A stretch of 64,000 nt of DNA, from NCBI GenBank assembly GCA_041500865.1, contig JBGQMY010000001.1, positions 18,834 to 82,833 of the forward strand. Direction: 5' to 3'. Of the stretch, positions 13,661 to 59,988 are shown piece after piece; positions within the stretch are counted from its first letter, which is position 1, and every line of letters begins with the position of its first letter. The notes beneath the pieces are model-generated. The model did not search any database, was not told the DNA's origin, and worked only from the letters and a program-made list of their open reading frames with translations. Origin of the DNA: Candidatus Micrarchaeia archaeon. GTDB taxonomy: Archaea > Micrarchaeota > Micrarchaeia > Anstonellales > J096. A program made the translations under genes and the position numbers.

Positions 13661-13694
13661 TCCGAGATAGAGTAATAATGCAGCGACAAAAGAT

Positions 13695-43900: not shown

Positions 43901-45060
43901 GTTTGGAAGTCTATCCACTTTCCCATTGTCCTGTAGCTTCCATTGAAGACTGCATTGTAGTCGTTGAGCGCGTCATTGAACGTGCTCTTTTGCGCGGTGG
44001 ACGCGCTGAGCGACATGAGCACCTCGCCCTTCAGTGGGTCTATCTTCCTAAGGGCGTCCACCGCGCCAGCAGATTTTTGGCGGCCGTAGAAGTCCGGCCT
44101 GAACAGGTATTTCCATTCATCGAAAATGCCTGCTTTGTCCAGATAGTATTTTATCATGCCAAGGTACAGCTTGTTTGCATCCGAAGACATCTTCATGCCC
44201 GAATAGATGTTGTAGGACCTGTCGAAGTTTGCCTTGTATTTCTCGTCCGTGGTGGAGACATATAGCGTGAAATTCTTCATCATGTTGGAAATGTCGTTTA
44301 TCTTGTCCTGGTTCAGCATCCCTGTGTAAAACGAGACCATGGACGTCTTCGTGTCATTGTAGTTTTTTTCTCCGGATTCGTAGGCCTTTCTCATGCCGTC
44401 TATCGCCGTTTCGGCGCTGGCCGCATAATTGAATATCATTGCCGATAGGTCCTTGTCGCCCATGGACTCAACTTTCTTGGAGTACGCCTGCAGGTCGACA
44501 AGTATGTCGTGTATCTTTGCCACTGTGTTCTTGACCCTGGTTGTGTCGGCAGGAGTCGTGCCTTCCTTCGGGAAAAGCTTCTGCGCCGCTTTTTTTGCCA
44601 CCACCTCGGAGGACATGACGTTCGCGAAATCGGGGCCGTATTTTTCCCTTACGGCGTCTGGATTGGAGACGACGCTGTCCCTTGCATACTGGATGGCGTC
44701 AAGGAAGTCTGCCCTTGAGAACCTGCCTGCCTTCTTCACGTACGCTTCCCTGAGCTCAGAATAGACATTCGGCTGGGAGGGCTTGGCCAGCTCCGACGGG
44801 CCGTACTTGTCGGCAAAGGACTTTATCGCCTTGTCCGCCTTTGCCTTGTTTTCGGCGCCGCCTTTCATGACGAAAGATTCAAAGGCCTTGAAGACTGCTT
44901 CCCTGTCCTTCTCAATGCCCTTTTCCACTGCAACAGCGTTCTTGGATGTATCGCCCATGTTTTCACCGGCCGTTTTGAACTTCGCATAGGCCGGCCCTAA
45001 TGCCAGCCCTGCAACAATGCTACTGTATATGATAGCTTTTTTAAAGTCAATGTGAGCCAT
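40903..45060 (-). CDS. large secreted or surface protein, 1385 aa, with a beta-rich C-terminus ending in aromatic residues
   Basis: Signal peptide MAHIDFKKAIIYSSIVAGLALGPAYA. No catalytic motifs recognised. The C-terminal 120 aa are rich in G/Y/W with alternating hydrophobic residues, ending VSVYFKLTF. Confidence 0.55.
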   Translation of the reverse strand: MAHIDFKKAIIYSSIVAGLALGPAYAKFKTAGENMGDTSKNAVAVEKGIEKDREAVFKAFESFVMKGGAENKAKADKAIKSFADKYGPSELAKPSQPNVYSELREAYVKKAGRFSRADFLDAIQYARDSVVSNPDAVREKYGPDFANVMSSEVVAKKAAQKLFPKEGTTPADTTRVKNTVAKIHDILVDLQAYSKKVESMGDKDLSAMIFNYAASAETAIDGMRKAYESGEKNYNDTKTSMVSFYTGMLNQDKINDISNMMKNFTLYVSTTDEKYKANFDRSYNIYSGMKMSSDANKLYLGMIKYYLDKAGIFDEWKYLFRPDFYGRQKSAGAVDALRKIDPLKGEVLMSLSASTAQKSTFNDALNDYNAVFNGSYRTMGKWIDFQTLGDALGISNPVQLGKWISQNYDALSSDKSRFQALKSKVMNYYQGTGGMTEDSLSSKALAIDKAFSIMTLMDVKLLGGALDALEAKGLTDTKTYAGLMENIMTLSTRDPYLIAGYLHYVVPAFAQLSNADTDVQLFFATFGAQLQTRLSKNVFNMTERENMLSRFRAISADLPRIPVANVTHKDLFYDIWNKTRTYESPYYYDVKQSEMTKMGSYFPMLNVPMQYRTLSLMPNQANYHNGYFSWSMPLLMQGAFDIYNRLNAELNPPGNNFRPPVPQMARIERAHVNTLITELNKIFAKRYGNEQYYNDWIGGSMEGGFGAANRYVEVGARGVAKTGAGGGVTTEVTGGKTGDNFIMTHDIDASKVNMGFNVNTATAAGTYEERNMATEAARLFAPVAKDKGDMLTYFTGNWGLSPYDKDSRTKEGWYWVTKGGDAYEVRMGTDTRDKLMNYQFGEANATNVLASLKTYIPDKDAPFNGAAVGFTAGTVAASGLWNQIVLRNGNSLSTVANEQAASLSKSNVFNKDDAVIGTYRRTSIGNEQYNFNIELKYRYVPAEISKSAAVIAVLGGSNVGGLQVKTEKMAGLSGLGGTLVYSGIDETQLLGLQSNMSNFLTNVYGWKRNDAQNTGAFVSGTYMYSMVRDQMGDLEQQGYGMATLIVWAHRFNMLAAGEKVPQWMNGINQTITNAEEQATLNPQEAAIIYKAAIQEVADQLKSKDVQNYALGMGVDGKFYLVGATDLEARSASMRGYLFFSDANQNVKGWLEGITSTLRGTQGEFYPDLFLGGGLKDRFRVLGGPTLMVDQNVSGTAVATRGGSGQLLWKFLRQNDDQSRTAKSDIILGLVGGTKRMNDAELNEWQVIITGTTVEAPTLVEHAATAWYVFADRKRHKLIIAPDTFQTEKDWSVTAGLDRAWVDVNQVGGKLQFHLTYGRYMDARDYIGLGAEYTHTRLPNEWGIGVAGGTGPLPYYSTDIWSWNYMSRQRLNPNNWGVSVYFKLTF

Positions 45061-46622: not shown

Positions 46623-47173
46623 AACTGCTTTTCGCGACGCACAACAAGGGGAAGCTTGCAGAGGCGCGGCAAATCCTTGGCCAGAAGGGGGTTGAGATAG
46701 GGCACCTTGAGGTTGAGTATGGCGAGCCGCGCGGGGAGGACACTTCCGAGATAGCGCGCAAGAGCGCTGAGCAGCTTTATCCGATCGTGAAAAAGCCGCT
46801 TTTCCTTGACGACAGCGGGCTTTTCGTTGATGCGCTGAAGGGATTTCCTGGGCCTTATTCCGCTTTTGTCTATAAAAGAATCGGATATGCCGGCATACTT
46901 AATTTGCTTAGCGGGAATTCCAACAGGAAGGCATATTTCAAGTGCTCAATTGCATATGCTGACGAAGACGGCGTCAAGGTTTTTGACGGGACAGTAAACG
47001 GCGGCATATCAAATGCGCCAAGGGGAGATGACGGATTCGGCTATGACCCTGTTTTCGTGCCTGACGGATTTTCCGAGACGTTTGCTGAGATGGATGACAA
47101 GGAGAAGAACGCGATTTCGCACAGGGGAAAGGCATTGGCCCTGTTCGCGGAATGGGTGGCAAAGAAGGATTAG
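46619..47173 (+). CDS. non-canonical purine NTP pyrophosphatase (Ham1/RdgB/ITPase)
   Basis: FATHNKGK N-terminus, FVPDG, and the SHRG C-terminal motif. ATGA overlap with glyS. Confidence 0.85.
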   Translation: MKLLFATHNKGKLAEARQILGQKGVEIGHLEVEYGEPRGEDTSEIARKSAEQLYPIVKKPLFLDDSGLFVDALKGFPGPYSAFVYKRIGYAGILNLLSGNSNRKAYFKCSIAYADEDGVKVFDGTVNGGISNAPRGDDGFGYDPVFVPDGFSETFAEMDDKEKNAISHRGKALALFAEWVAKKD

Positions 47174-47943
47174 GCGGCGAGGCAATCGCTGAAGGATTTC
47201 ATGAATGGGCTGAATGCTTCATTCCCAACCATTACCTCAAGCAATTTGGACGCAAGGAACTCCATGGGCAAGACATGCCCGCTCAGTATGGCCATGCCCA
47301 ATGGCGTATTGCCTGAATTGCTCCTTATGGCGATATCGGCGCCGTTTTCCATCAGCAGGGCGCAAGTCCTGGTGTCGATGTTGGTTGCGGCATAGTGCAG
47401 TGGCGTCATTCCGGCATAGTCTTTTGAGTTGATGAGCTCTATTACGTTTCCGCCTGCTTTTGCGTATTCTTCTATCAGCAGTTTGCAGATGTCGGTATTT
47501 CCAGACGCTGCGGCACGGTGAAGGGCTGTCTTGCCGGCATTGTCCTTTGCGTTCACGTCCGCTCCCTTTTCAAGCAGTAAAGCGCAGGTCTCGGTATGTC
47601 CGTTCGCTACGGCATACATGAGCGCAGTTGTACCATAATTGCTCTTTGCGTTCACGTCCGCTCCGTTCTTTATCAGCATGGTGCAGGTGTCGGTGTGTCC
47701 GTTCACTGCGGCAAGCATGAGCGCAGTCCAGCCGTCCTTGTCCTTTGCCTCGATGGTTGCGCCTTTCTTGATGAGCCGCTCTATCTCATTGATATTGCTA
47801 TTCTTTGCGGCGCTGATGAGTTCATCATTGAGTTTCTTCTGCGCTTCTTCTGGCACTTTTGGCTTCTCGCTTGGCAAAATATCGGCTTTATGGTTTATTG
47901 GTTTCTTTGTTGTACTCTTTAGGCTCCGCTTCCTTTCCTGCAT
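47170..47943 (-). CDS. ankyrin-repeat protein ending in FMKSFSDCLAA
   Basis: Six ankyrin repeats. The internal start MQERKR is preferred because the upstream extension overlaps the divergent MBL gene and is not protein-like. Confidence 0.75.
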   Translation of the reverse strand: MQERKRSLKSTTKKPINHKADILPSEKPKVPEEAQKKLNDELISAAKNSNINEIERLIKKGATIEAKDKDGWTALMLAAVNGHTDTCTMLIKNGADVNAKSNYGTTALMYAVANGHTETCALLLEKGADVNAKDNAGKTALHRAAASGNTDICKLLIEEYAKAGGNVIELINSKDYAGMTPLHYAATNIDTRTCALLMENGADIAIRSNSGNTPLGMAILSGHVLPMEFLASKLLEVMVGNEAFSPFMKSFSDCLAA

Positions 47944-47994
47944 GCATCCATCGTGCGGCAAAGGGATTAAAATGCTATTGGGCAATGAGATTCC

Positions 47995-48579
47995 ATGGAC
48001 GAAGTCAAGGTTCTTGTTGAAGGCTATGCCAGGAGGATGAAAAACGGCTGGGCGGCAAGCTCCGCAGCTATATTGGTAAGAAGCAGCGGCAAAACGATAA
48101 TCGTTGACCCTGGCTGCAACAGGCAAAGGCTGATGGGCGCGCTGAAAAGGGAAAGGCTCAGGACCGGCGATATTGATTTTGTTTTTCTCACGCACAGCCA
48201 TTTTGACCATTCCATGCTTGCCGGCATATTTGAGAATGCGAAAGTGATTGACTGCGAGGAGATTTTCGACGGCGACATGCAGGTCTCCCATCACGGGGCC
48301 ATACCTGGAACAGGACTGAAAATAATCCAGACGCCGGGCCACACCGACGACCATTGCTCGCTGCTTGCAAACACGGAAAAAGGCGTGTGCGCGATAGCCG
48401 GAGACGTCTTCTGGTGGGAAGAAGGCGAGAGGCAGTCAATTGACATAGGCAAGCCTGACGCCGCGCATCCCAGCGACGTGAAAAAACTTGCAAAAAGCAG
48501 GAAAATGCTGCTGGAAAGGGCGGACTGGGTAATACCGGGCCATGGCGGGCCGTTTAACACAAAGGGACGGCCAGATTGA
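47995..48579 (+). CDS. MBL-fold metallo-hydrolase
   Basis: Metallo-beta-lactamase metal-binding motif LTHSHFDH (HxHxDH) with downstream His and Asp ligands. Confidence 0.75.
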   Translation: MDEVKVLVEGYARRMKNGWAASSAAILVRSSGKTIIVDPGCNRQRLMGALKRERLRTGDIDFVFLTHSHFDHSMLAGIFENAKVIDCEEIFDGDMQVSHHGAIPGTGLKIIQTPGHTDDHCSLLANTEKGVCAIAGDVFWWEEGERQSIDIGKPDAAHPSDVKKLAKSRKMLLERADWVIPGHGGPFNTKGRPD

Positions 48580-48751: not shown

Positions 48752-49288
48752 ATGGCAGGACCATGCGAAAAAGCAGCTACTGAGTTGGTTAATGCTCTGT
48801 TCAAGGAGATGCCCGATGCATCCATAAAATCCTACATGGAAACGAAGCTCAACGAGAAATTCGTTGCGCAGTTCAAGTCCATGAAGGAGGATTTCCTCAT
48901 GGAGGTCGTCCCAAAGCTGAACGACGTACAGGAAGACATGAAAGCAATCATAGCCAAGAAGGGCAAGGAGAACGTGAACTACGGCGTCGCAATGCTCATG
49001 TATTATGCGGCAGCATGCAACGTCGGGAAGGACGAAATAAACAGCTTCCTTGTGTCATACGGCAAGGGCGGAAAGGAGCTGCTTGCGAAGTATCTCAGCG
49101 CTTCAGGAAATGCCGCTCTTATTGAGAAAAAGACTGTGTCTGCGATGGAAGTCGCGCTCAGCCTTGAGGAAGCAGTGTCTGAAACTACGTTCAGGGCCTT
49201 CAGCACCGAACTCTACAAATTCGCGGAAAAGGGCAAGAAGGGCGCTGAAACTGAAGGAACGGACGTGCTTTACCACAAAGTAGCGTGA
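48752..49288 (+). CDS. hypothetical helical protein, first gene of the AAA+/VWA operon
   Basis: 178 aa, no motif recognised. TTTAAAAA box at 48708..48715. Confidence 0.45.
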   Translation: MAGPCEKAATELVNALFKEMPDASIKSYMETKLNEKFVAQFKSMKEDFLMEVVPKLNDVQEDMKAIIAKKGKENVNYGVAMLMYYAAACNVGKDEINSFLVSYGKGGKELLAKYLSASGNAALIEKKTVSAMEVALSLEEAVSETTFRAFSTELYKFAEKGKKGAETEGTDVLYHKVA

Positions 49289-49294
49289 TAGCCT

Positions 49295-51925
49295 ATGCCA
49301 CAGGCGACCGTGCAGAGGTTCCCCTCGCTAGAGGAGGGCAAAAAAACCAAGCTGCACGGCGCACTTTCTTCTAAAACCGGAAAGTACGGGGAAATGCTTA
49401 GGGTAATCCCACAGATAAGCACTTTTACGGTAAACAACACCATAAAGATGCACCCCGCGTTCACGTGCAACGCGATGTGCATGTTCCTGGACATGACCAT
49501 GGGCGAGAAGCAGCCCTTTGTCCCCTATCTTGTCGGAAACCCCGGGACGGGCAAGACGTTTGCGGCGGAGATGCTGCTTGACGTAGCCCTAACTAAGATG
49601 AAGGGCGTGTTCTCGTCCCAGGAAGGCACCGAAAAAGGCATCACTGAAACGCTTGCGAAATGCGTGGACAACGGCATGCTGGAGTCCGACTTCAGGCCCG
49701 AAAAATCCAAGGCATTCGTCAAATACTTCGGAAAATCAAACGTGCTTGCTGAAATCGCCTCTGCCATGGCCGACGCGTATGCTGCCTCGCCGCCTGCAAA
49801 GATGGGGCAGATAAAGAGCAGGTTCGAGGAGATGATGATATCGCTCAAGGCGATAGCCAACGCGTCCGGGAAATCAAGGGATGAAATCGCGAAGGAGCTT
49901 GACAAAAGCATAAGCACGGATGTTTACGTTTTGCCTTCGGCGTCCTCCGCAACCGACATAATATCCGAAGAGGCCTATGTCATAAGCTCGTCAGGCATAG
50001 AAAGGGTGGTGAAGCACCCGATAATAAGGATGCTCGCAGAGGCTTACGAGGGAAAGATAAGCACGCTGATAATAGACGAGGCAAGCGAGACGCTGAAGGA
50101 GAAGGCCGCGGCAAGGGTGAAGAACCTCCATCCGCTGATTGACGCGCAGGTCAACGGAAAAACGCTGCTGGTTTCCATAAACCCGGAAAACGTGGACGAG
50201 GAAGGCAGGGACATGCTTGCGCAGCTCGGGTCCGCAGTGGAAAAAAGGATGAAGGAAGGCGGACTATGGGCAGAGGACAACATGGACGACATGAAGGCGC
50301 TGTCAAAGGACATAGGCGCAGCGCTTGAAGGAAAGAGAATCCAGCTGTCCATACCGATGCCCAATACGTCATGCATCATCATGACAGGCAACGTGAGGCA
50401 GGAATACGAGCAGATAGGGCTTACAGGGGCGACTTGGAGAAGGATACAGCCCATAATGTTCTCGTACCTGCCGCCGGAGCACATGGGGAAGTTCCTCAAC
50501 GACCTTAAGGACAGGTACAAGCAGGAGCTAAGCGCCGCGATGGGAAGCGACTTCAATTCCATAGAGGCGGACATGGGCCAGAGGAGGGACGAGTTCGTGA
50601 GGAGGCTTGTTGACGTATACAGGAGCATGTACGACAGCTACGTGGCCGAGCCCGCTAAGTTCGCAAACAGGATGCTGCCTTCGCTCAGGAGCATGGCATA
50701 CGCGCTCAGGTCGTTTGAGAGCTACTACGCAATGTCAAGCATAATAAGGGAGTCCGATGACTTTGACAAGGTGGAGTGCGCGGAAATCTCGCTCAACCTG
50801 ACTTCGCATGGCGGCCAAAGGTTCGTGGAGATGAAGAAGGACAAAAAAGGCCTGAAGGGGGTTCTGCCGAGCCAGCAGAGGTACGGCGAATTCCTGCTGG
50901 CGTCAATGGAGCTCTCGACATACATACCGGTCGGCAGCTTCACCGAGACCAGCGAGAGCAGGAGCGGCGAAAGCGAGATGACGCTCAGGTCAAAGGCAAG
51001 GGAGATATTCGCGGCAAGGGGCCTCAAGGGAGGCAGCACGCAGGAAAGGATGATATCCATAAGGCTCGGAAAAAAGGAATATGTGTATTCGGAGCCGAAC
51101 TACATGTACGTGATGTACGGGCTTGCAAACTCCCTGTCAAGGCAGAGGCTGATGCTGCTTGTCGGGGAAAGCCAGGAGGGAAAGACGACGACTGTTGATT
51201 TCACGCAGGCGTTCCTCAGGGAAAACGGGAAGAGCTTCGGTTTCGACGAAGTGAAATACGTCGGCATAGACGACATAGAGGAGTTCACGCTAAGGACCCC
51301 GAACATAAAAAGGAGGGAACAGGGGACTGAAAGGGCCGTGAAGAAATCCCTGCTCAGGGAAACGGTGGAAGACGCCAACGCAAACCCCGAAACGACGTTC
51401 ATAGTCCGCGTGGACGAAGTAGACAATTTAAGGTTCTCGCAGGAGCTCAATGCGCTGTTCACCAGGGACAGGATAACGATGGGCGGCAAGGCATACAACA
51501 TAGGGAACATCGTAATCATGGGAACGTCCAACATATCCCGGATTATGCTGGACAACTTCGTGAGCAGGGGCGGCATACCCCTTGTCTTCACCGGGTCAAC
51601 GTCAAAGGTTGAATATCCCGGCCAGAACTTCGACATAAGGAACATCTACCTCATGCATGCCGCTATGGAAAGGTCTCTCGGCAGCGCCGGAAAGGCCAAT
51701 GAGATAATGGGGCACCTGCTGAGCGACGCGAACACGGTTGACCAGATATCAAGGATAGACTTTTATGAGATAGCGAAGACGCAGGGCAAGCTTGCATCCA
51801 AGTACATGGCTGCAGTTGAGAAAGGGATGCCGGCAGAGGACTACGTCGGCGCTGTCTCCGCATACATAAGGTCCATCACCCAAACCGACACTGAGCGGGA
51901 GCAGGTGAAGAGGGGGGCGGTCTGA
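49295..51925 (+). CDS. tandem MoxR-type AAA+ ATPase with two AAA+ modules in one polypeptide
   Basis: Module 1: Walker A GNPGTGKT (aa 81-88), Walker B TLIIDEAS (about aa 257), sensor-1 SINPENVDEEG. Module 2: Walker A GESQEGKT (aa 624-631), Walker B FIVRVDEVDN (about aa 703), sensor-1 IMGTSN...LDNF. The NPxxxEG and LD(R/N)F pattern is typical of the MoxR class. Confidence 0.75.
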   Translation: MPQATVQRFPSLEEGKKTKLHGALSSKTGKYGEMLRVIPQISTFTVNNTIKMHPAFTCNAMCMFLDMTMGEKQPFVPYLVGNPGTGKTFAAEMLLDVALTKMKGVFSSQEGTEKGITETLAKCVDNGMLESDFRPEKSKAFVKYFGKSNVLAEIASAMADAYAASPPAKMGQIKSRFEEMMISLKAIANASGKSRDEIAKELDKSISTDVYVLPSASSATDIISEEAYVISSSGIERVVKHPIIRMLAEAYEGKISTLIIDEASETLKEKAAARVKNLHPLIDAQVNGKTLLVSINPENVDEEGRDMLAQLGSAVEKRMKEGGLWAEDNMDDMKALSKDIGAALEGKRIQLSIPMPNTSCIIMTGNVRQEYEQIGLTGATWRRIQPIMFSYLPPEHMGKFLNDLKDRYKQELSAAMGSDFNSIEADMGQRRDEFVRRLVDVYRSMYDSYVAEPAKFANRMLPSLRSMAYALRSFESYYAMSSIIRESDDFDKVECAEISLNLTSHGGQRFVEMKKDKKGLKGVLPSQQRYGEFLLASMELSTYIPVGSFTETSESRSGESEMTLRSKAREIFAARGLKGGSTQERMISIRLGKKEYVYSEPNYMYVMYGLANSLSRQRLMLLVGESQEGKTTTVDFTQAFLRENGKSFGFDEVKYVGIDDIEEFTLRTPNIKRREQGTERAVKKSLLRETVEDANANPETTFIVRVDEVDNLRFSQELNALFTRDRITMGGKAYNIGNIVIMGTSNISRIMLDNFVSRGGIPLVFTGSTSKVEYPGQNFDIRNIYLMHAAMERSLGSAGKANEIMGHLLSDANTVDQISRIDFYEIAKTQGKLASKYMAAVEKGMPAEDYVGAVSAYIRSITQTDTEREQVKRGAV

Positions 51926-52300
51926 ATGGCAAAAATGATTACTGCGGCCGAGGCAAGGCAGGTTATCATGACGCTGGAAGGCGCGGAAAGGTTCGCGCCG
52001 GCCTGGATAGCGTCCGGCTCAAGGAAGAACGTTTCCGGCTTCAGGGACGCATACCAGTTCCTGGCAAAAAGGTTCGCAAAATACCTGGAAGGCAGGTTCG
52101 GCGCGGAAAAGATGGAAAAGGAGGCGTTCTCCCGCCTTTTCACCAAATTCCTCATGCCATTCTGCTCGCCTGAGTTCATGGAAGGGCATGAAAAAAGCCA
52201 GTACAAGGCATGGAAGGCCATTGAAAGGATGCTTGACAGCTGCATGGACGGCATGGACCTGGCCTACGCCATAGGGAACGGCGAGTTCGTGGCGGCTTAG
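51926..52300 (+). CDS. small hypothetical protein between the AAA+ and VWA genes
   Basis: 124 aa, helical. Its start abuts the stop of the AAA+ gene. Confidence 0.45.
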   Translation: MAKMITAAEARQVIMTLEGAERFAPAWIASGSRKNVSGFRDAYQFLAKRFAKYLEGRFGAEKMEKEAFSRLFTKFLMPFCSPEFMEGHEKSQYKAWKAIERMLDSCMDGMDLAYAIGNGEFVAA

Positions 52301-52313
52301 GAGGCGGCTGACC

Positions 52314-55300
52314 ATGGCCCAATCCGCTTTTGACGTGATGAAAGAGGAGCCTACGCAGCGGAAGGGCGGCCCTCGCGAAAGAAAAAGGCTAATGGAATCC
52401 TCAGGCCTTGGCACGGCGGGGATGGAAAAGGGTGTAAGGCTTTTCACCGACTATGGGGCATTCACGGATTTTGCTTCAAGATTCAATGGGGACGTGGTGA
52501 CGGCATACGAGGCCGCGAAGCAGGGCACGGTCGAGGAGGCAGGCAGGATAGCCGAAGACCTGTTTCCGACAAAGGGCAACAGGGCCACGTTCGGGAAAGC
52601 GGTGCGGAAATTCTGCGACGACTCGTTCTCAATGCTGTTCGCGATGGTGCTCATGGAAGGCCAGCTGGACAGGAATTACACGGCCCACGTGGAATCCGCG
52701 CTTTCCCAAAGGGCGAAGAACCTGATGAGCTTCATAAGGGATTTTGAGGACATGAAGAGCCCGGAAAGGATGAGGGAAAGGGTGATTTCAACTATTGGGA
52801 CATTCAAGGACGAGTTTCCCTTTGCATTGATGCAGCAGCTTGACAAGTTCGAGGCAGGGGTAAGGAAAGGGGCTTATGACGACATGCTTGCGCAGATATC
52901 AAAGGCCTACATGGAGACCAGGATGGGGGAGCAAAAGGGGTTTGAGGCGTACTTTTTCATAAATTACAGGGAAAACGCGTTCTTTGACATCATAACGCTT
53001 GCGATGGAGAACTCCGCCATGGGCATGATAAAGAAGGACGACATGCTGGCCATGTTCAGGCGCGAAAGCCCTGAGCAGGTATTCCTGTTTCCCTCGCTTT
53101 TCGTCCCCATATACGGGGCGGACGAGTTCATGAGGCTCAGAGCCGGCAAGGTCGTAGCGGACATTCCGATAGACGACGGCCTGAGAGCCGTGCTCTCGGA
53201 GCAGGAGATGTGGAAGGACATCCCGATAAGGCCGGCAGAGCAGGTAATACCGCCGCTGGGCAACGTCGCGCAGCTCATAAGGGATATGCCGTCCGCTAAC
53301 GTGGACGCGGTCAGCAGGGCAGAGGCCAACACGCTGCCGCCGCAGGAGATGAAAAGCTTCATATTCAGGAGGATGGCCGAAAGGAAGATATCGCCAGTGC
53401 TTGACGTGGTCCCGTCAGGGTGCTCCATAGGCGAAAGGGACAGGATAAGGGCCAATGCCTCCACGAGGACCGTGCAGTACGGCGTAAACGACACCTTCCC
53501 GGAAATGGACATGGGAATCGGCATAAGCATCATGTTCCACCACCTTTCCGACAGGATGAAATTCGTAAACAGGATGGAAAACGCCCTTGGCTACACTGAC
53601 GGCGCAGGCATATACCTGTTCCCGTATTACTCAAGGATGCCGACAAGGGACCTCAATGCGTACCTGCTGTTCAACGTGGGCAGGCACGAGTGGGGCCACA
53701 TATCCATGGGCTCCTTTGAGTACACTGCCGGAAATGTGCCGAAGATAGACCTTTTCGCTCCGCTTGAAAGGGACGCCTCGTATGCCAAAAGGTATGAAGA
53801 AAAGGGAAAGGAGAACATAGCGCAGCTGCAGGAATTCATCAATGGGATCATGCGCTCAGTGGACGCTGAGCTCAGCAAAAGGGAGAACGGCAAGGCAACG
53901 CTCAGGGAGATATACAAGACGATAGACGGCACAATCAAGTCGCACTACAAAAAAGAGGAGCACAGCAAAAACCCCTACATCAAGAGGTTCTACGAGTATT
54001 TCGGGACAGAGCTGTACAGGCACATAGACAACGTGATAGACGACTACAGGATAGACAGGTCGTTCTATGACGGCAAGGGAAGGGACGAGATACTGTATGA
54101 GATGGGCGTGGCTGAAACGGACAAGCTGAGGAAGATTTACAGGGTTTCAACGTATCTCAGGGCCATGAACAGGGCGGTATCTATGCATGAGCAGTTCAAG
54201 GAGGAGCCAAACAAGTCAAATGCCGTGGACACGCTTTTCCTGAGGACGATACTTGATGAAAAGTCTTTCAGCGAACTGGTTGGCCCAAGCGTGGACCCGC
54301 TGTTCAGGGACATTTGCGAGATAGCGATGTCAGAGGTGTACAAGGGGGCGGATACGCCAAGAAGGGTGAACGAGGTCATGTGCGCGTCAATGGAATTCAT
54401 GGCGCTTGCGATGATTTTTGACGACGCCATAAAGCCGCCAAAGGTCGTAAGGCAGAAAAAGAAAGGTGAAGGCGGCGAGAAAGGTGGCGAAAAGGGGGAG
54501 AAGGGCGAGGGAGAACAGCAGGGCGGCACGCCAAAAGAGGACCTTGACAAGGAAAAGGGGGAGAAAGAAAAGGGCGGCAAGGGGGATAAGAAAGGGGACA
54601 AAGGAGATGAAGACGAAGGCCAGGGGGACAGCCTTATTGACAAAGACCAGGACGGAAACGTCAACATCAACAAGGATGACAAGAAGGTAGAAGGAAGGGA
54701 AAAGGAAGTTGAGAATTTAAATGCAGCGGAGAAGCACGGGTACGAGACAATTGAGGTCCGGGCTGAAAAGGTGGAGATGTTCAAGCAGTTCTTCCGCGAC
54801 CTGAGGATAGACAGGATGGTCATCATAACGGAACTCGGCAAGAGGGGCGCAAGGGTTGACGTTGACGAGCTTGTGAAATTCATGTACAGGAAAGGCGCAA
54901 GGGAAGCGACGTTTTTGGAAAAGAAGGTCATGGAAACCGACGTCGGAAGCCACCTGGAGGCAAGGCCCATAGACATATACATAGGCGTTGACACGAGCGG
55001 CAGCATGACCGGCGATTCCGGAAGGATGAAAAACTCCAAGAGGATATCGCTTGAGATGCTTGCAGGCTACAACGAGGTTGCGGCCGAGATGAGGTCCGCC
55101 AACATAAGGCTGCACCTGATATCCGTTGCCACGGAAGGCGACCATATCGCCATAAGGGACTGGGACGCCACAAAGGGCCTGATGGTGGAGAAGAAAGGCG
55201 ACTTCTACTCTATTTCATACAAGTTCAGCGAGATAAACGGGGCCACGGACCTGCCGGCCATGATAACCCAGTTCCAGTCGTTCGTTGAGGAAATAAAGAA

Positions 55301-55691
55301 GAACACGATAGGCGAGATAATCAGGGGCAGGAATGCGCTGAACCCTTCAGTGATGATAATGTACATAACGGATTTCGGGGACAACGCCGGTGACCTGGAA
55401 GGCGTAGTTTCGGCCACAAGGCAATTCGGGACGTTTGCCAGAAAATACAGGGCAGATTCCAAGACTGTCAATTACATCTCCAACGACGCGGGCATAGCCA
55501 CGCTGTTCGTTGTCCCGGACGAGCACAGCGACAGCGACGACATAATGGGCGCGGTTGAAAGGGCGACAAGCGGGGCCGTTGTCAAGTTCACCGGCGAGAA
55601 CGAGAGGGACGTTCTTGACAAGATGAACGCGCTCAGGCCCGTCCTTGAGGGGCTCAGGGCAAGCAACGTGGCTGAGAAGGCTGAAAAGTGA
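52314..55691 (+). CDS. large VWA-domain protein with MIDAS motif, HExxH motif and K/E/G-rich low-complexity linker
   Basis: HEWGH at aa 458-462 (nt 53685..53699). K/E/G-rich linker at about aa 716-800. C-terminal VWA domain with MIDAS motif DTSGS at aa 893-897 (nt 54990..55004). This is the AAA+ partner architecture seen in CobT, ChlD and NorD. Confidence 0.75.
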   Translation: MAQSAFDVMKEEPTQRKGGPRERKRLMESSGLGTAGMEKGVRLFTDYGAFTDFASRFNGDVVTAYEAAKQGTVEEAGRIAEDLFPTKGNRATFGKAVRKFCDDSFSMLFAMVLMEGQLDRNYTAHVESALSQRAKNLMSFIRDFEDMKSPERMRERVISTIGTFKDEFPFALMQQLDKFEAGVRKGAYDDMLAQISKAYMETRMGEQKGFEAYFFINYRENAFFDIITLAMENSAMGMIKKDDMLAMFRRESPEQVFLFPSLFVPIYGADEFMRLRAGKVVADIPIDDGLRAVLSEQEMWKDIPIRPAEQVIPPLGNVAQLIRDMPSANVDAVSRAEANTLPPQEMKSFIFRRMAERKISPVLDVVPSGCSIGERDRIRANASTRTVQYGVNDTFPEMDMGIGISIMFHHLSDRMKFVNRMENALGYTDGAGIYLFPYYSRMPTRDLNAYLLFNVGRHEWGHISMGSFEYTAGNVPKIDLFAPLERDASYAKRYEEKGKENIAQLQEFINGIMRSVDAELSKRENGKATLREIYKTIDGTIKSHYKKEEHSKNPYIKRFYEYFGTELYRHIDNVIDDYRIDRSFYDGKGRDEILYEMGVAETDKLRKIYRVSTYLRAMNRAVSMHEQFKEEPNKSNAVDTLFLRTILDEKSFSELVGPSVDPLFRDICEIAMSEVYKGADTPRRVNEVMCASMEFMALAMIFDDAIKPPKVVRQKKKGEGGEKGGEKGEKGEGEQQGGTPKEDLDKEKGEKEKGGKGDKKGDKGDEDEGQGDSLIDKDQDGNVNINKDDKKVEGREKEVENLNAAEKHGYETIEVRAEKVEMFKQFFRDLRIDRMVIITELGKRGARVDVDELVKFMYRKGAREATFLEKKVMETDVGSHLEARPIDIYIGVDTSGSMTGDSGRMKNSKRISLEMLAGYNEVAAEMRSANIRLHLISVATEGDHIAIRDWDATKGLMVEKKGDFYSISYKFSEINGATDLPAMITQFQSFVEEIKKNTIGEIIRGRNALNPSVMIMYITDFGDNAGDLEGVVSATRQFGTFARKYRADSKTVNYISNDAGIATLFVVPDEHSDSDDIMGAVERATSGAVVKFTGENERDVLDKMNALRPVLEGLRASNVAEKAEK

Positions 55692-56284
55692 TGGCAACCA
55701 GGATACGGCAAGCCAACCAAGGGGGCGGCGGGACAGAGACTGTATTAAATCTTGCGAAGCCTGAGCCAGATAAAAATCCAAATGCTTTTGCATCCAAGCC
55801 GGATACAGACAAAGAGGCGCTTTCGGCAGAGAATATGGATATTCTTACCGACGCGCTTATTTTTGAGATACGGCATGGCGGCATAAAAAACGTAAATTAC
55901 AGGCTTAGTGAAGGAGCCGACCCGAACAGGACAGACAAGGAAGGCATCTTGCCGATGGCAGCGGCAGTTTGCGTAAATAAAATCAATGTATGCAGGCTGT
56001 TGCTGAAAAAAGGGGCGGATGTAGATGGCAAGGACAGGCGCGGCTGGACTGCGCTCATGTATGCCGCCTGGGCCAACAACGCGATGATGTGCAGGTTTTT
56101 GCTGGGCCATGGGGCAGACGCCCTGATAATGGACAAAGAGAAAAATTCAACATACGGCCTGCCGAATGAAAAGGAAACGAAGGCACTGTTGAAGATGTTT
56201 GCATGGAAAAGCAAGGCCCTGAAAAGCCTGCTCAGTGGCAGGATTGGGGCGTTCAAGGAGCATTTTGGGCTCTGCGTTTCTTGA
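55691..56284 (+). CDS. ankyrin-repeat protein translationally coupled to the VWA gene, ending in FKEHFGLCVS
   Basis: TGATG overlap with the VWA stop. The track ORF begins with GTG at 55688. Confidence 0.75.
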   Translation: MATRIRQANQGGGGTETVLNLAKPEPDKNPNAFASKPDTDKEALSAENMDILTDALIFEIRHGGIKNVNYRLSEGADPNRTDKEGILPMAAAVCVNKINVCRLLLKKGADVDGKDRRGWTALMYAAWANNAMMCRFLLGHGADALIMDKEKNSTYGLPNEKETKALLKMFAWKSKALKSLLSGRIGAFKEHFGLCVS

Positions 56285-56414: not shown

Positions 56415-56867
56415 ATGGAAGAAAGGGAATTTAAAGGTTCGCCCGATTGGGAGAACGACATAGAGAAGGAAGCCAAGAAAACGCTCACAAGGCTCAGAGA
56501 GGACCCAGTGATGCTCGGAGTTCTCATGTCCAAGATTCTGGAGGAACGGGAAAACACCAATAGGCTGCTAAAGAACCTGCTTCAAAGGATAGAGCAGCTT
56601 GAATCCAGGACCGTCAAGAACAGCGAGGTACAAGAGATTCGCGAAGCGATGCTGCCGGAAATCGACGAGCAGATTGTGGGATACATAAGGGAGAAGGGAA
56701 AGGCGAGCGCGGAGGACGTACGGGTTAGATTCAATTATAAAGGCACCAATGCGGCCTCCGCGCGGCTGAACAGGCTTTATAGCATCGGCATAGTAGACAA
56801 GAAACAGGCGGGCAAAAGGGTTTATTTCTTTTTGCCGTCATGGCAAGGCGACCAACCCCCCGGTTAG
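56415..56867 (+). CDS. winged-helix DNA-binding protein
   Basis: C-terminal winged-helix pattern (IVGYIREKGKASAEDVRVRFNY...RLNRLYSIGIV). TCATGA repeats lie upstream. Confidence 0.5.
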   Translation: MEEREFKGSPDWENDIEKEAKKTLTRLREDPVMLGVLMSKILEERENTNRLLKNLLQRIEQLESRTVKNSEVQEIREAMLPEIDEQIVGYIREKGKASAEDVRVRFNYKGTNAASARLNRLYSIGIVDKKQAGKRVYFFLPSWQGDQPPG

Positions 56868-56905: not shown

Positions 56906-58393
56906 TCAGCCGAACTCGCTTCCCTTTTCCATCCTTTTCATTGAGAAATCGGATTGGCTTGCCTTCCACCAGTTTTTGTCGTACCTGTCAAACAGCTGCT
57001 CCTCTATCGTCTTTGCGTGGTTTATGGCTTCCAAAACGTGCCTTTTCTCTATCAGGCTGCTTCCTTCTCCTACTGCGCTGTCCCCGGAAAGGCGCACGAT
57101 GCCCGAAAGCTTCCTTAGCCTCAGCGTAAGGGACTTGGGCGCATTGTCCACGTTGTCCGCAATCCTCTTGGCCTCCTTGATTATCTCTTCAACGGCCTCC
57201 CTCGTGGCATGGGGTATCTTCTTGTCCCTTGCCACTTCCTGCGCCACGAACTGCACGAGCTTTGCCCTGCTCTCCGGCGTGTCAGGGACCTTGACGTCAA
57301 GCAAGACCTCGTAGCCTTCCCCCCTTATCCTGCTCCTGAGCGCGGGGTTTATCTCAGATATGTCGGTAACGTTCATTGCGCCTATGAATATGAAGTCGCA
57401 CGGCACGCCGTCCACCCTCACTATGGCACCTGTGCTTGTCGTGTTCCTTCCCAGTATCGGGAAGTTCTTGTCCTGCATCGCGGTAAGTATGCACTTCTGC
57501 AAAGGATAGTCTATGGACGTCAGCTCGTCAATGAAAAGCACGCCCTCGTGCGCCGAATGCACTGCCCCTGGGACGACCCTCATGAACGGCGGGATGCCTA
57601 TCTCCGGATGCCCCCCGTACGGGTCATGCTGTATGTCGCCAAGAAGCTCGCTTTCGCTTGCTCCCGTCGCCTGCACGAACGTGCTCCTGTTTATGGGCAC
57701 AAGGACCTTCTTTTCGTCCTTTATGCTGCTGGACGCCTTTTTCATCTCATCCTGCGTCAGCACCCTTATCTTTCCCTCGAACTGCTCGTAGATGACGATT
57801 TCCTTCTTGCCCAGCGGGTCCCTCTTTTCCGCCTTGACGAACTTCTTCCTTGAAGGCACGTCCCTTTGGGGGGCAATGAGGTCGTTGAACGGGTTTGAGA
57901 AGCTGGCATGCTTGGCCGCGCTGCAGTTCGGGCAGATGCCCAATTCGGGGTTGCTCAGCTCCCCGCAGCGCGAGCACCTGAATCCCAGCTCTTCAGCAAC
58001 GAAGATGGGCGCGTCCTGCGGCTCTATCAGCTTGCCTATTGAGGGCTGCGACGGCGCCTTTGTTGCCACGTCCTCCCTCCTTTCCAGCTTGAGTATGGGC
58101 CTTTCAGGCTTCCCGGCATTGTGCAGCACCGATATCTGCATCTTCGGCATCGGAAGGATTGTTGCCACGGCCCTTGCTATCATGCTTTTGCCTGTGCCCG
58201 GCGGGCCTACGAGGAGAAGATGCCTTTTCTGCATGGCCGAGACTCGCGCGAACTTCACTGCCCTTTCCTGGCCGATAATGCAGAAGAACGGGTCGTCCGG
58301 AACCGGTATCTCCGATGTGTCGCTGTAAGCCTCAACGGATTTCATGAGCTCCTGCTCGACTTTCTCCTTCAGGTGGCTGACGGCTGAAAACAT
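56906..58393 (-). CDS. LonB-like AAA+ ATPase lacking the protease domain, with an inserted Zn-ribbon
   Basis: IIGQERAV...LLLVGPPGTGKSM...ILP matches the archaeal LonB N-terminal module. Inserted CSRCG...CPNCS. Ends after the AAA helical subdomain. No S16 protease Ser-Lys dyad. Confidence 0.65.
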   Translation of the reverse strand: MFSAVSHLKEKVEQELMKSVEAYSDTSEIPVPDDPFFCIIGQERAVKFARVSAMQKRHLLLVGPPGTGKSMIARAVATILPMPKMQISVLHNAGKPERPILKLERREDVATKAPSQPSIGKLIEPQDAPIFVAEELGFRCSRCGELSNPELGICPNCSAAKHASFSNPFNDLIAPQRDVPSRKKFVKAEKRDPLGKKEIVIYEQFEGKIRVLTQDEMKKASSSIKDEKKVLVPINRSTFVQATGASESELLGDIQHDPYGGHPEIGIPPFMRVVPGAVHSAHEGVLFIDELTSIDYPLQKCILTAMQDKNFPILGRNTTSTGAIVRVDGVPCDFIFIGAMNVTDISEINPALRSRIRGEGYEVLLDVKVPDTPESRAKLVQFVAQEVARDKKIPHATREAVEEIIKEAKRIADNVDNAPKSLTLRLRKLSGIVRLSGDSAVGEGSSLIEKRHVLEAINHAKTIEEQLFDRYDKNWWKASQSDFSMKRMEKGSEFG

Positions 58394-58519
58394 ATGGTTT
58401 AAGGTTGCATATACCTGTTTATAACGCTTTGCGCAGTCGGAAAAAGAAAAGCGTTTTTAACCTATGCCAAGAATATATGGTAAGCCTTTTAGCAAAAGGC
58501 TTAAGCGAAAAACGTATGT

Positions 58520-58593
58520 GGGGCCTTGGGGTAACCTGGTTAGCCTGTTGGCTTCGGGAGCCAGAGATCCGAGTTCAAATCTCGGAGGCCCCA
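58520..58593 (+). tRNA. tRNA-Pro (anticodon CGG); coordinates uncertain by about 1 nt
   Basis: Hand-folded. Acceptor GGGGCCT/AGGCCCC, anticodon stem TTGGC/GCCAG with loop TTCGGGA, T-arm CCGAG-TTCAAAT-CTCGG, discriminator A, no CCA. A TTTATAAA box lies immediately downstream. Confidence 0.85.
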
Positions 58594-58626
58594 TTCTTTA
58601 TAAAACGTTTAATGCAAAATAAAGGC

Positions 58627-59187
58627 ATGGCGCAGGAAAGGCATAGGCTTGCTGCTAAGATTACCGAGCAAAAACGGCCCAAACTGGCAGGCAAGAAGCT
58701 GCCGGCAGACAAAGGCATTCAATACGAGAAGAAACAGAAGCGGCTCAACGGACAACTGCTTAAAGTTGCCGGAAAGGGAAATGCTGAAAAGGTGAAGCGC
58801 CTGCTGGAGCTTGGCGCAGACATAAATGCAAAAGACAGCGAGGGCTTTACAGCGCTCATGTTTGCCTTGAACGCGAGACATACCGATATCGCCATGTTCC
58901 TGATAGGATTAGGGGCGGACGTGCATGGAAAGGAAAGAGGCATGACTCCCCTTATGATTGCCGCATCATACGGCTATATAGGCATTTGCGAGCTGCTGAT
59001 TGGAAAAGGCGCGGATATCGGAGCAGAGGATCAGGCACGCCGGACTGCATATGACTGGGCAAAGATAAGGTTTGAGGAAGAAATGGTCGACTTCCTGATA
59101 TATGCGAAGCGTTTGGTGAAAGTGACTGGCAAGGACGGCTTCAGGACATTCCTTTCGGATTTCAGGGCTTGCGCCGGAAGCGCCTAG
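58627..59187 (+). CDS. ankyrin-repeat protein ending in FLSDFRACAGSA
   Basis: The track ORF 58405..59187 runs through the tRNA. The start is taken at MAQERH, about 25 nt downstream of the TTTATAAA box. Confidence 0.7.
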   Translation: MAQERHRLAAKITEQKRPKLAGKKLPADKGIQYEKKQKRLNGQLLKVAGKGNAEKVKRLLELGADINAKDSEGFTALMFALNARHTDIAMFLIGLGADVHGKERGMTPLMIAASYGYIGICELLIGKGADIGAEDQARRTAYDWAKIRFEEEMVDFLIYAKRLVKVTGKDGFRTFLSDFRACAGSA

Positions 59188-59226: not shown

Positions 59227-59988
59227 ATGAAGCTGGCCCGCAGAATAACCAACACTAAAAAGGTCGCTGGCAGCTTAATTTATAGAACAAATGTCCTTGA
59301 CCAGGAAGCGTTAAACAAAAAGCTTTTTGAGACAATAGATAACTTTGGCGGAAGGCCTGAAGTCTCATACTGGATAATGCAGGGCGCAAACATAGAGGCA
59401 AGGAACTCTAAAAAAGAGACACCGCTATTCATGGCAGTGTACCGCGGCGGGCCGGCAATAATAAATCTCCTGCTGGAATGCGGCGCAAATATAGACGCAA
59501 AGGACAAATGGGGCCGGACGCCGCTCATGAATGCAGTAATGCAATCAGACCGCGGCACAGAGGCATGGCTCCTTATAGAAAAGGGGGCGGATGTGCATGC
59601 AAAGGACAAAGGGGGCACGCCCGTCATTTGCTTTGCTGCGCTGTACGGAAGGAACCAAATTGTGTATGACCTCCTCAAAAAAGGCGCTGACATAAACGCA
59701 ACGGACAGGTGGGGCAAGACGCCGCTGATGATTGCAGTAAAGGAAAACAATCTCAAACTTATAGCGATGCTCATAGAGATGGGCGCGGACATAACGATAA
59801 TGGACAATGAAGGAATGACAGTGCTTGACCAAGCCAGAAGGCAGGAAAATGCCGAAAAATTCGGAACACTGCAGATAATATTCCTTGCAGGATTCGGAAA
59901 AGAGACATTCACGGCATTCAGGAAAAGCTTCAGGGAATGCATCGTCAAGGAAAGGGGATACATTTCCGCATCCAGCTACCTTTTATAA
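59227..59988 (+). CDS. ankyrin-repeat protein with FRKSFRECIV near the C-terminus
   Basis: Six ankyrin repeats. Confidence 0.8.
   Translation: MKLARRITNTKKVAGSLIYRTNVLDQEALNKKLFETIDNFGGRPEVSYWIMQGANIEARNSKKETPLFMAVYRGGPAIINLLLECGANIDAKDKWGRTPLMNAVMQSDRGTEAWLLIEKGADVHAKDKGGTPVICFAALYGRNQIVYDLLKKGADINATDRWGKTPLMIAVKENNLKLIAMLIEMGADITIMDNEGMTVLDQARRQENAEKFGTLQIIFLAGFGKETFTAFRKSFRECIVKERGYISASSYLL

Follow-up and report, generated by a model that had tools for sequence, protein, structure and literature searches.

The question raised by this locus is whether a HEWGH pentapeptide within a large protein that ends in a VWA domain marks a metallopeptidase-like site, and whether such a site, joined to a VWA domain and encoded beside an AAA+ ATPase, represents a new kind of system. 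The protein has 1125 aa and its gene (52314..55691, + strand, stop codon included) was taken from the ORF list and its translation; 5 close and 16 distant homologues support it. The cassette is chromosomal and belongs to a Candidatus Micrarchaeota genome (a DPANN archaeon), of which a stretch of 64,000 nucleotides was analyzed here and is referred to as the window.

Conservation of the HEWGH motif

The motif is encoded by codons 53685-53699 of the + strand (cac gag tgg ggc cac, H458 E459 W G H462 in the ORF translation), exactly where the sequence-only reading had placed it, and lies in the context NVGRHEWGHISMGSFEYTAGN. No other HExxH occurs in the protein. The two His residues and the Glu, whose retention in homologues that reading had proposed as a check, are kept in orthologues and distant relatives alike: H458, E459, and H462 show no substitution in any of the 5 close homologues or in 13 full-length family members whose identity falls to 17% overall and 15% in the domain. 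The homologues keeping these residues span 15-91% identity. A Micrarchaeia orthologue (L003) has HEFGH in place of HEWGH. Because only 13 of the 373 positions of the zincin-like domain are invariant in the 13-homologue set, and three of these fall within one pentapeptide, the conservation of this putative zinc-binding and catalytic motif is not a matter of chance.

A HExxH sequence is short, and given the length of the protein and its content of H (1.24%) and E (9.2%), 0.016 occurrences would be expected by chance; however, HEWGH is invariant in all homologues, with co-conserved motifs on either side, and its alignment with the HExxH of the CobT-like proteins and of DUF2201_N, two other families, is in register. 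It is therefore vanishingly improbable that HEWGH is a random occurrence with no functional meaning, a reading that the conservation data effectively refute.

Domain architecture and candidate metal ligands

The protein begins with a helical region of ~339 aa (52314..53330, +) that has no phage counterpart; it gave no family match and no hhalign match to DUF2201 proteins, and its all-helical character is a low-confidence prediction from a full-length AF2 model that was built from 5 sequences and, at a pLDDT of 36, was unusable. The zincin-like domain that follows (residues 340-712; 53331..54449, +) was modeled separately with a pLDDT of 84.7 and a pTM of 0.85. In this model, predicted strands at domain positions 76-78, 87-89 (GYT of the TDG motif), and 94-96 (IYL) lie upstream of a helix (106-125) that carries HExxH at 119-123, equivalent to H458-H462 (block pLDDT 93/90). 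The TDG motif itself (T428-D429-G430; 53595..53603, +) aligns with the TDG of DUF2201_N and of the CobT-like proteins; in the family alignment, T428 is invariant and G430 is at least 90% conserved. Both generic features of a zincin, a HExxH on an alpha-helix and a beta-sheet with an edge strand just before the active-site helix, are thus predicted, the latter at the level of secondary structure. The sequence-only reading had named a non-protease helical fold as the outcome that would count against it; the model instead places the HExxH helix after a small beta-sheet.

The pentapeptide is part of an extended motif, HExxHIxxGSF, whose Gly (G466; 53709..53711, +) is invariant in the family alignments and recurs in the HExGHIxxGSF of actinophage CobT-like proteins. 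Further downstream is a family-specific helical insertion of ~85 aa (about residues 480-563; 53751..54002, +; model helices 143-224), which separates the HExxH helix from the helix bearing the conserved Asp residues and contains E485 and E495/496. The proposal that E485 and E494/495 serve as third ligands fails, since these positions vary among homologues and hence are not conserved. The residue numbering in that proposal was also off: 494/495 is Y494/E495, and the Glu pair is E495/E496.

Because the insertion intervenes, the conserved acidic residues (D/E576, D577, and D581) are found 115-123 residues downstream of the motif. They form part of N573-V-I-D576-D577-Y-R-I580-D581 (54030..54056, +), a motif of the form N-x-x-[ED]-D-x-[RK]-I-D, in which N573, D577, I580, and D581 are invariant, giving N573-x3-D577-x3-D581, and position 576 is D in close members and E in distant ones. 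In the model, N573, D577, and D581 are carried by helix 227-246 (pLDDT 93-95). On the strength of the alignments, D577 would be the best candidate for the third metal ligand; it aligns with the invariant D101 of DUF2201_N and with the D of EDxRx[DE] in the CobT-like proteins and is the sole acidic residue of the second motif that is common to all three families. A metzincin assignment (HExxHxxGxxH/D with a Met-turn) was considered and rejected: the Gly of HExxHIxxGSF is at +8, not +7, and there is no conserved His or Asp at +10/+11, where E469 is variable. As for a gluzincin-type third Glu on a downstream helix, the family has no invariant Glu there; position 576 is E in distant members, and D577-x3-D581 is invariant.

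The zincin-like domain is followed by a low-complexity linker rich in K, G, E, and D (about residues 713-800; 54450..54713, +; K20 G20 E16 D12 of 88 residues) whose length varies among homologues. Analogous acidic or Gly-rich linkers are present in the CobT-like protein of HVTV-1 and in phage N4 gp25. The C-terminal VWA domain, of the adhesion type (54951..55688, +), has a full MIDAS, consisting of D893-T-S895-G-S897 (54990-55004, +), T978 (55245-55247), and D1020 (55371-55373), and D893, S895, S897, T978, and D1020 are all invariant among homologues. The domain matched the DUF2201 VWA-like domain by hhalign (93.9%, E 1.6e-7); the Pfam VWA and VWA_2 families gave weak matches in only 3 of the 13 homologues.

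Relatives of the domain and the partner ATPase

Searches with Pfam and NCBIfam on the whole protein, and with Pfam on fragments and on 13 homologues, gave no informative family match. The comparison with zincin HMMs that the sequence-only reading had suggested came back empty, with no direct match at an E value of 10 or less among the peptidase families of Pfam and NCBIfam; PF13203 and PF09967 likewise had no match at E <= 10, and so none at the Pfam gathering thresholds, in the whole protein, its subfragments, or the 13 homologues. Pfam CobT and CobT_C (PF11775) did not detect the window protein, the CobT_C-type VWA family did not match any of the 13 homologues, and a single family member had a marginal match to Pfam CobT (E 0.046). 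A PHROGs scan yielded nothing informative, and PADLOC gave no support for an anti-phage defense system. Sequence searches of the PDB with the single sequence and with family profiles returned coiled-coil or spurious matches only, and Foldseek with the domain model found no match there (best E 2.1). Among viral structures, a query lacking the VWA domain had as its best Foldseek match a phage "CobT subunit" (prob 0.98, E 0.036), with a VWFA protein and a DUF2201-type "metallopeptidase domain protein" also among the top matches. Neither tblastn of the domain and VWA region against phages nor a scan of viral contigs found the archaeal zincin/VWA protein.

Profile-profile comparison was more sensitive. 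The zincin-like domain matched the N-domain of viral CobT-like proteins by hhalign at 95.2% (E 2.9e-8) when unmodified and at 97.6% (E 2.8e-12, 101 columns) when the insertion was removed; the motif series TDG...HExGHIxxGSF...EDxRx[DE] aligned residue by residue, and the phage and halovirus "CobT-like" proteins carry HE[IC]GHI. Against DUF2201_N, the match rose from 70.7% (E 3.8e-5) to 88-91.2% upon removal of the insertion, which allowed the alignment to span both motifs; deletions of equal size elsewhere brought no gain. Control scores were 8.9 for the reversed template and 12 +/- 2.4 for column shuffles (maximum, 18.9), compared with 43-49 observed, and masking HExxH in the two profiles left the alignment register intact, at a score of 28 versus 10.8 +/- 1.8. 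The protein is therefore homologous at the profile level to DUF2201_N and DUF2201 in both its N-domain and its VWA domain. The DUF2201_N invariant set (H75, E76, H79, H84, R87, N97, A99, D101, and N105) is retained in part: the archaeal family keeps H, E, H, N, and D, lacks H84, R87, and A99, and has D581 at the position of N105. The DUF2201_N profile, in turn, weakly matched MJ1213 (4qhf; E 0.003), which we take to be the minimal metallopeptidase selecase, and M48 peptidases, including BepA (profile against PDB; E 0.003 to 0.8).

The gene immediately upstream in every context examined encodes an ATPase, which in the window has 876 aa and two AAA+ modules (49295..51925, +; Pfam AAA_22, 5.6e-10, plus generic P-loop matches). 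Module 1 has Walker A GNPGTGKT (81-88), Walker B DE (261-262), and a sensor TGNxR (364-368), and module 2 has GESQEGKT (624-631), E708, T744/N746, and DNFxSR (753-758); these motifs are invariant in the family alignment. A small ORF of 124 aa (51926..52300, +) without a Pfam or NCBIfam match separates the two genes, and an ORF of 86-126 aa occupies this position in 8 of 10 contexts, being absent from L016 and L018. Upstream of the ATPase gene, an ORF of 178 aa (48752..49288, +) is possibly the first gene of the cassette; matched by position, ORFs of 167-409 aa are found ahead of the ATPase gene in L001, L002, L003, L012, L013, L017, and L018. The arrangement of ATPase, (small ORF), and zincin/VWA genes is kept in nine archaeal contexts, and the operon of ATPase and VWA genes in ten loci, including those of homologues at 17-25% identity.

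The VWA protein, with its intact MIDAS, therefore has an operonic AAA+ partner in every context examined, as in a MoxR-VWA pair; however, the partner is not demonstrably MoxR. There was no AAA_3 match (PF07726), the AAA_5 match (PF07728) was below threshold (E 0.022, 15.2 bits against a cutoff of 22), and one ATPase homologue had a weak AAA_5 match. Comparison by hhalign with phage MoxR/CobS-like ATPases gave partial similarity (43% over 129 columns for module 2 and 73.5% over 31 columns for module 1), and the PDB returned generic AAA+ matches only.

The sequence-only reading had also stated that, among the known VWA partners of MoxR ATPases in the CobT, NorD, or CbbO families, none is described with a metallopeptidase-like motif. 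Phage N4 gp25 combines PF13203 ("putative metallopeptidase") with the VWA-like PF09967 and adjoins gp24, an AAA_5 ATPase; jumbo-phage MoxR-vWA pairs with an N-terminal metallopeptidase have been described (PMC7824862); and the viral CobT-like proteins have HE[IC]GHI. Since zincin-VWA pairing beside an AAA_5/MoxR ATPase was already known in the CobT-like and DUF2201 proteins, the claim of novelty does not hold. As judged by sequence comparison, the archaeal protein is a divergent variant of a known, uncharacterized domain pairing and not a new kind of system.

Function and comparison with known systems

We consider it reasonably probable that HEWGH is the metal-binding and catalytic motif of a zincin-like domain that belongs to one superfamily with the viral CobT-like N-domains and DUF2201_N, is tethered to a VWA domain, and works with the AAA+ partner. 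It can be envisioned that H458 and H462 on the active-site helix, together with D577 on the next conserved helix, would hold a divalent metal, probably Zn2+, with E459 acting as the general base and the TDG strand as the substrate-binding edge. The charged, flexible linker would tether this domain to the VWA domain, and the protein would act with the co-transcribed two-module ATPase. By analogy with other AAA+/VWA pairs, the VWA/MIDAS would either bind a protein target or engage the ATPase, hydrolysis of ATP would drive remodeling of the target, and cleavage or processing by the tethered zincin would follow. The earlier suggestion of a protease effector is upheld in part: the conserved motif, its predicted helical context, and homology to putative metallopeptidase families favor it, but peptidase activity itself is something that we infer, as we do metal binding, the ATPase-VWA interaction, and the substrate. 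Peptidase activity is putative throughout the superfamily; the literature searched contained no demonstration of it for the CobT-like or DUF2201_N families. Two second-shell residues that are invariant in DUF2201_N, H84 and R87, are missing from the archaeal family, which argues against this reading, as does a partner that is not a typical MoxR.

The related AAA+/VWA pairs CobST, NorQD, CbbQO, and BchID serve to insert metals or to activate enzymes, CobST and NorQD being concerned with metal insertion rather than proteolysis, and this background lends weight to a rather unlikely alternative, in which the HExxH/Asp site binds metal but is not that of a protease. The protein would then be a CobT/NorD-type adaptor that, together with its AAA+ partner, delivers a metal ion or cofactor to a client or inserts it there, as a chelatase or metallochaperone-like maturation factor would, or it would perform a nonpeptide hydrolysis. 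The closest relatives are annotated as CobT-like, and their VWA domain matches CobT_C (that of PokyPuppy at 4e-7); the top viral fold match bears the name "CobT subunit"; and cyanophage cobT, "usually annotated as a peptidase," is deemed in the same report to be misannotated (PMC8651126). However, the catalytic Glu of HExxH is invariant, although a site for metal binding alone could dispense with it; the CobT of Pseudomonas phage nickie has SEISK at the aligned position, so the His pair is not required in a CobT of the chelatase type; and no cobN, other chelatase, NOR, or RuBisCO genes were found in the window around the cassette or in related loci. Loss of H84 and R87 could also point to a catalytically dead zincin kept only for its structure, to scaffold the ATPase or substrate or to interact with them, and in vWA-MoxR conflict systems vWA components commonly come fused to peptidase domains that are inactive (PMC7159879). 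Dead domains, though, usually lose their catalytic residues, whereas the H, E, H, and D577 of the archaeal family belong to the 13 positions that stay invariant at 15-25% identity and are also kept in the viral CobT-like relatives, and we regard such a remnant as very unlikely.

A bolder proposal, which we think doubtful, is that the cassette constitutes an unrecognized two-component ATP-dependent metalloprotease of DPANN housekeeping, with a two-module AAA+ motor and a MIDAS/VWA-borne protease; as a corollary, the N-domains of VWA partners of the chelatase and activase types (CobT, perhaps NorD/CbbO) would descend from this zincin by loss of the His ligands. Zincin-VWA proteins are currently annotated in conflicting ways, as peptidases, cobalt chelatase subunits, and even HNH endonucleases, and in the literature searched no protein of this architecture (phage CobT-like, N4 gp25/DUF2201, or jumbo-phage MoxR-vWA-peptidase) has a demonstrated activity. 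The shared motifs that tie together the CobT-like, DUF2201_N, and archaeal families could correct widespread misannotation. That small-genome DPANN archaea encode a deeply conserved cellular form on the chromosome implies a role at the core of the cell rather than one specific to phages, and the archaeal family, with its invariant catalytic residues and enlarged ATPase, provides an independent second lineage for testing the idea of an ATP-coupled protease.

Among known systems, bona fide CobT, NorD, and CbbO (with partners CobS, NorQ, and CbbQ) resemble the archaeal protein in their C-terminal VWA/MIDAS domain and AAA+ partner. The PF06213 and PF11775 matches and cobN/cobS context of an aerobic cobaltochelatase CobT are lacking here, with no cob genes nearby. 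The only bona fide CobT examined, that of phage nickie (Pfam CobT, 27.3 bits; CobT_C, 1.3e-28), has no His pair; a link between its N-domain and the HExxH domain was suggestive in register and fell short of significance (hhalign E 0.1). Midasin/Rea1 (AAA_5 ring, acidic linker, MIDAS) shares the AAA+ modules, charged low-complexity linker, and MIDAS but is a single eukaryotic polypeptide without a zincin domain; the phage partner ATPases match midasin at E 1e-18, whereas the archaeal ATPase has no detectable match. Minimal gluzincins and M48-type zincins (MJ1213, BepA, M48 peptidase) have a similar core of a strand followed by the HExxH helix, with the third ligand on a later helix; the archaeal family differs in having no direct sequence or Foldseek match to them, a candidate third ligand that is Asp rather than Glu, and a long insertion between the helices.

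The DUF2201_N plus DUF2201 proteins, presumably COG3864 and named "predicted metal-dependent peptidase" by JGI, also combine an N-terminal HExxH domain with a C-terminal VWA domain beside an AAA+ ATPase gene, and they have the TDG strand, HExxH, and N-x3-D-x3-[ND] helix in identical order. They are ~380-480 aa long, compared with 1125 aa, and the archaeal family is set apart by HExxHIxxGSF with the invariant G466 and by the acidic D/E576. Peptidolytic processing has been proposed for the MoxR-vWA-metallopeptidase pairs of jumbo phages (PMC7824862).

The CobT-like proteins of actinophages (Gordonia phage PokyPuppy gp87) and of haloarchaeal tailed viruses (HVTV-1 gp57, assigned to COG4547 [PMC8651126]) are each paired with an AAA_5 "CobS" ATPase. 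Like them, the archaeal protein has a collinear zincin-like N-domain, charged low-complexity linker, and VWA/MIDAS domain, the motifs TDGxxI..P, HExGHIxxGSF, and EDxRx[DE], and an adjoining AAA+ ATPase gene. Unlike these viral proteins of 630-890 aa, it is cellular, adds the ~340-aa N-terminal helical region and the ~85-aa insertion, and has no Cys-rich insert like that of the actinophage proteins; and where their partner is a single-module AAA_5 ATPase of 400-520 aa, the archaeal family has a two-module ATPase of 846-949 aa.

Conservation and predicted structure of the HEWGH domain

The motif H458-E-W-G-H462 is encoded by codons 53685-53699, within NVGRHEWGHISMGSFEYTAGN, of a 1,125-aa ORF (52314-55691, + strand) whose product also carries a VWA domain. 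It is the sole HExxH of that protein; the chance expectation, computed from the protein's own composition, is 0.016 occurrences. A word-indexed search recovered only 5 close homologues, and an HMM search run exhaustively over 1.8 billion cluster representatives recovered only 16; therefore, the family is rare. Only 13 of the 373 positions of the domain alignment are invariant. In the alignment of 13 full-length members (17 to 81% identity), both His residues and the Glu of the motif (H458, E459, and H462) are invariant together with G466, as are T428 and N448 before it; N573, D577, I580, D581, D591, and Y609 of a second motif group; and the VWA MIDAS set (D893, S895, S897, T978/D979, and T1019/D1020/G1022). 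The extended motifs of the family are [AS]xTDGxxIYLxP, HExxHIxxGSF, and N-[IV]-x-[ED]-D-Y-[RK]-I-D. The sequence-only reading had the coordinates and residue numbers of the motif right, with one exception: residues 494 and 495, given as Glu, are Y494 and E495, the Glu pair being E495/E496. The third ligands that it proposed, E485 and E495/E496, are freely variable across the 13 members. It is concluded that HEWGH is a real, conserved motif within a domain of a type annotated as a putative metallopeptidase; a chance origin is excluded.

A full-length model built from 5 sequences was unusable (pLDDT, 36); a domain model of residues 340-712 from 13 sequences reached a pLDDT of 84.7 and a pTM of 0.85. 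The latter has three short strands (residues 415-417, 426-428, and 433-435), a long helix bearing HExxH (445-464), a helix block (~480-563), and a helix bearing N573, D577, and D581 (566-585). In the prediction, the strands, the HExxH helix, and the ligand helix follow one another as a zincin core requires. Foldseek gave no match to the domain model in the PDB (best E value, 2.1). Among predicted viral structures, the top match to the VWA-less domain query was a phage "CobT subunit" (probability, 0.98; E, 0.036); a "VWFA domain protein" was also among the best matches, and Ruegeria phage V13 contributed a "metallopeptidase domain protein" at rank 4.

Relationship to DUF2201 and CobT-like proteins

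Direct HMM family scans with the zincin/VWA protein gave no match; two related families, DUF2201 and CobT-like, were reached by way of the viral fold matches. Phage N4 gp25 comprises PF13203 (DUF2201_N, "putative metallopeptidase domain"; 3e-87) and PF09967 (VWA-like) and adjoins gp24, an AAA_5 ATPase; pairs of this type are present in ~690 to 860 phage records. A diverse DUF2201_N profile matched the archaeal domain from TDG to HExxH with 70.7% probability (E, 3.8e-5), and with the family-specific helical insertion excised the match rose to 88 to 91% (E, 1e-6 to 3e-6) and extended further, so that N573-x3-D577-x3-D581 lined up with the DUF2201_N invariants N97-x-A-x-D101-x3-N105. This homology is supported by controls: the observed scores of 43 to 49 compare with 8.9 for the reversed template and 12 ± 2.4 for 30 column shuffles (maximum, 18.9), deletions of equal size elsewhere brought no gain, and masking HExxH in both profiles preserved the register (score, 28 versus 10.8 ± 1.8 for shuffles). 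The C-terminal region matched the DUF2201 VWA-like domain at 93.9%. Many of these phage genes (H7, H8, H14, H18-H22, H30, H38, and others, and RefSeq gp25 of N4) are labeled "HNH endonuclease," which conflicts with their PF13203 and PF09967 content and looks like a propagated misannotation.

The N-domains of CobT-like proteins match the archaeal domain much better than DUF2201_N does. This set comprises the proteins named "CobT-like cobalamin biosynthesis protein" in actinophages (PokyPuppy gp87 and relatives) and in haloarchaeal tailed viruses (HVTV-1 gp57); an AAA_5 "CobS" ATPase gene adjoins each of their genes. Their sequences read TDGKTIWIEPP, LNHEIGHILYGSF, and GEDIRCDE, after which come a low-complexity acidic linker and the VWA domain. 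The CobT-like profile matched the unmodified archaeal alignment at 95.2% (E, 2.9e-8) and the insertion-free alignment at 97.6% (E, 2.8e-12; 101 columns), and it matched DUF2201_N at 91% (E, 1e-6), so that the two families are mutually related. We regard these homologies of the archaeal domain as very probable. In the actinophage proteins (L020 and L022-L025), the stretch from the TDG strand to the HExxH helix holds a conserved H...C...CPxC insert that may be a zinc ribbon; neither the archaeal family nor the halovirus proteins have it.

The cobT gene of Pseudomonas phage nickie (L026:1184-3265) encodes a bona fide CobT (Pfam CobT, 27.3 bits; CobT_C, 1.3e-28) that, compared with L019, L020, and window positions 53685-53699, has LDSEISKVLYADG where CobT-like proteins have LNHEIGHILYGSF, with SEISK replacing HExxH at the aligned position. 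MAFFT and hhalign concur on this register, in a match that is not significant (E, 0.1). The N-domain of cobaltochelatase CobT may be a zincin that has lost its His ligands.

The cassette and its genomic setting

Directly upstream of the zincin/VWA gene lie a 178-aa ORF, an 876-aa ATPase with two P-loop modules, and a 124-aa ORF, an order shared by three close relatives (L001-L003). The cassette order also holds for homologues of 17 to 25% identity: in all six distant loci (L012, L013, and L015-L018), the HExxH/VWA gene follows that of an 846- to 949-aa ATPase, either directly or, more often, after an intervening 86- to 126-aa ORF. Two genome matches place the host lineage in Candidatus Micrarchaeota/Micrarchaeia, among the DPANN archaea. 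The locus is chromosomal, since the housekeeping genes of the window comprise, among others, an intein-containing RtcB, a class II aminoacyl-tRNA synthetase, Ham1, and two tRNAs. The label MoxR given earlier to the partner ATPase is not established: Pfam returned AAA_22 and generic P-loop matches, and two complete AAA modules are visible when seven homologues are aligned. The ATPase resembles the MoxR/CobS-type partners of phages only in part (module 2, 43%; module 1, 73.5% over 31 columns around sensor 1).

In L001-L003 and the window, but not in the distant loci, the cassette is immediately followed by a 150-aa ORF (56415-56867, +) and a gene for a 495-aa AAA+ protein (56906-58393, -) with Mg_chelatase, AAA_5, and LonB_AAA-LID matches and a DUF7130-like CxxC...CxxC insert, without a Lon protease domain. 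Ankyrin-repeat proteins are encoded at 47170-48354 (-), 55688-56284 (+), and 59227-59988 (+). The second (198 aa) has a GTG start four bases before the VWA stop and may therefore be cotranscribed; L001-L003 lack it there. In L018, a gene for an Ank protein (L018:11202-11633) lies two genes downstream of the cassette. HEAT-repeat proteins are encoded directly downstream in two distant loci (L012:8394-9587; L017:9998-11818 and 13639-15906), the L015 cassette abuts a ribosomal-protein operon, and a thermosome gene is near that of L018; the HEAT-repeat, ribosomal-protein, and thermosome neighbors may hint at clients or be coincidental.

Elsewhere in the window, the RtcB tRNA ligase (38107-40899, +; Pfam RtcB, 2e-159) is split by an intein (Intein_splicing, 1e-13) with a LAGLIDADG homing-endonuclease domain (LAGLIDADG_3, 1.5e-9). 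Large ORFs of 1,385 aa (40903-45060, -) and 829 aa (61136-63625, -) have no Pfam match; L001 and L003 have 829- to 830-aa ORFs at the position corresponding to the latter, adjoining a CdvB-HTH-like gene and a DUF87/TraG-type ATPase. A 260-aa TTG-start ORF (58405-59187, +) overlaps a same-strand tRNA-Pro (58519-58594) and is probably no real gene.

Proposed function and comparison with known systems

D577 is the only second-motif acidic residue conserved in the archaeal, DUF2201_N, and CobT-like families and is therefore the best third-ligand candidate; the metal site would comprise H458, H462, and D577, with E459 as the general base. Because its MIDAS is complete, the VWA domain is likely to engage an acidic residue, either in a client or in the ATPase, by analogy with other AAA+/VWA pairs, and the strictly conserved gene pairing argues for joint action of the ATPase and the zincin/VWA protein. 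We favor, with some confidence, the view that the cassette is an ATP-coupled processing protease; for actual peptidase activity, the chances appear about even. The main rival, a nonproteolytic, metal-handling role like that of CobT or NorD, is a serious but less probable alternative, since the catalytic Glu is invariant and the one bona fide CobT examined, that of nickie, lacks HExxH. That the domain is a dead scaffold is quite unlikely given its residue conservation.

The sequence-only reading took the combination of motif and VWA partner to be new; however, a fusion of zincin-like and VWA domains encoded next to a MoxR/AAA_5 ATPase is already in Pfam as PF13203 plus PF09967, and such a fusion beside a MoxR-type ATPase has been described for jumbo phages (PMC7824862). 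The architecture is thus known, although biochemically uncharacterized. It is doubtful that the cassette represents a new class of two-component AAA+ metalloprotease of which CobT-type VWA partners are degenerate descendants. What is new is the variant itself, which is cellular, confined to DPANN archaea, and strongly diverged: unlike the known families, the archaeal protein is undetected by current family models, is up to three times larger, has an additional N-terminal helical region and an insertion within the zincin domain, and is partnered by a two-module AAA+ protein.
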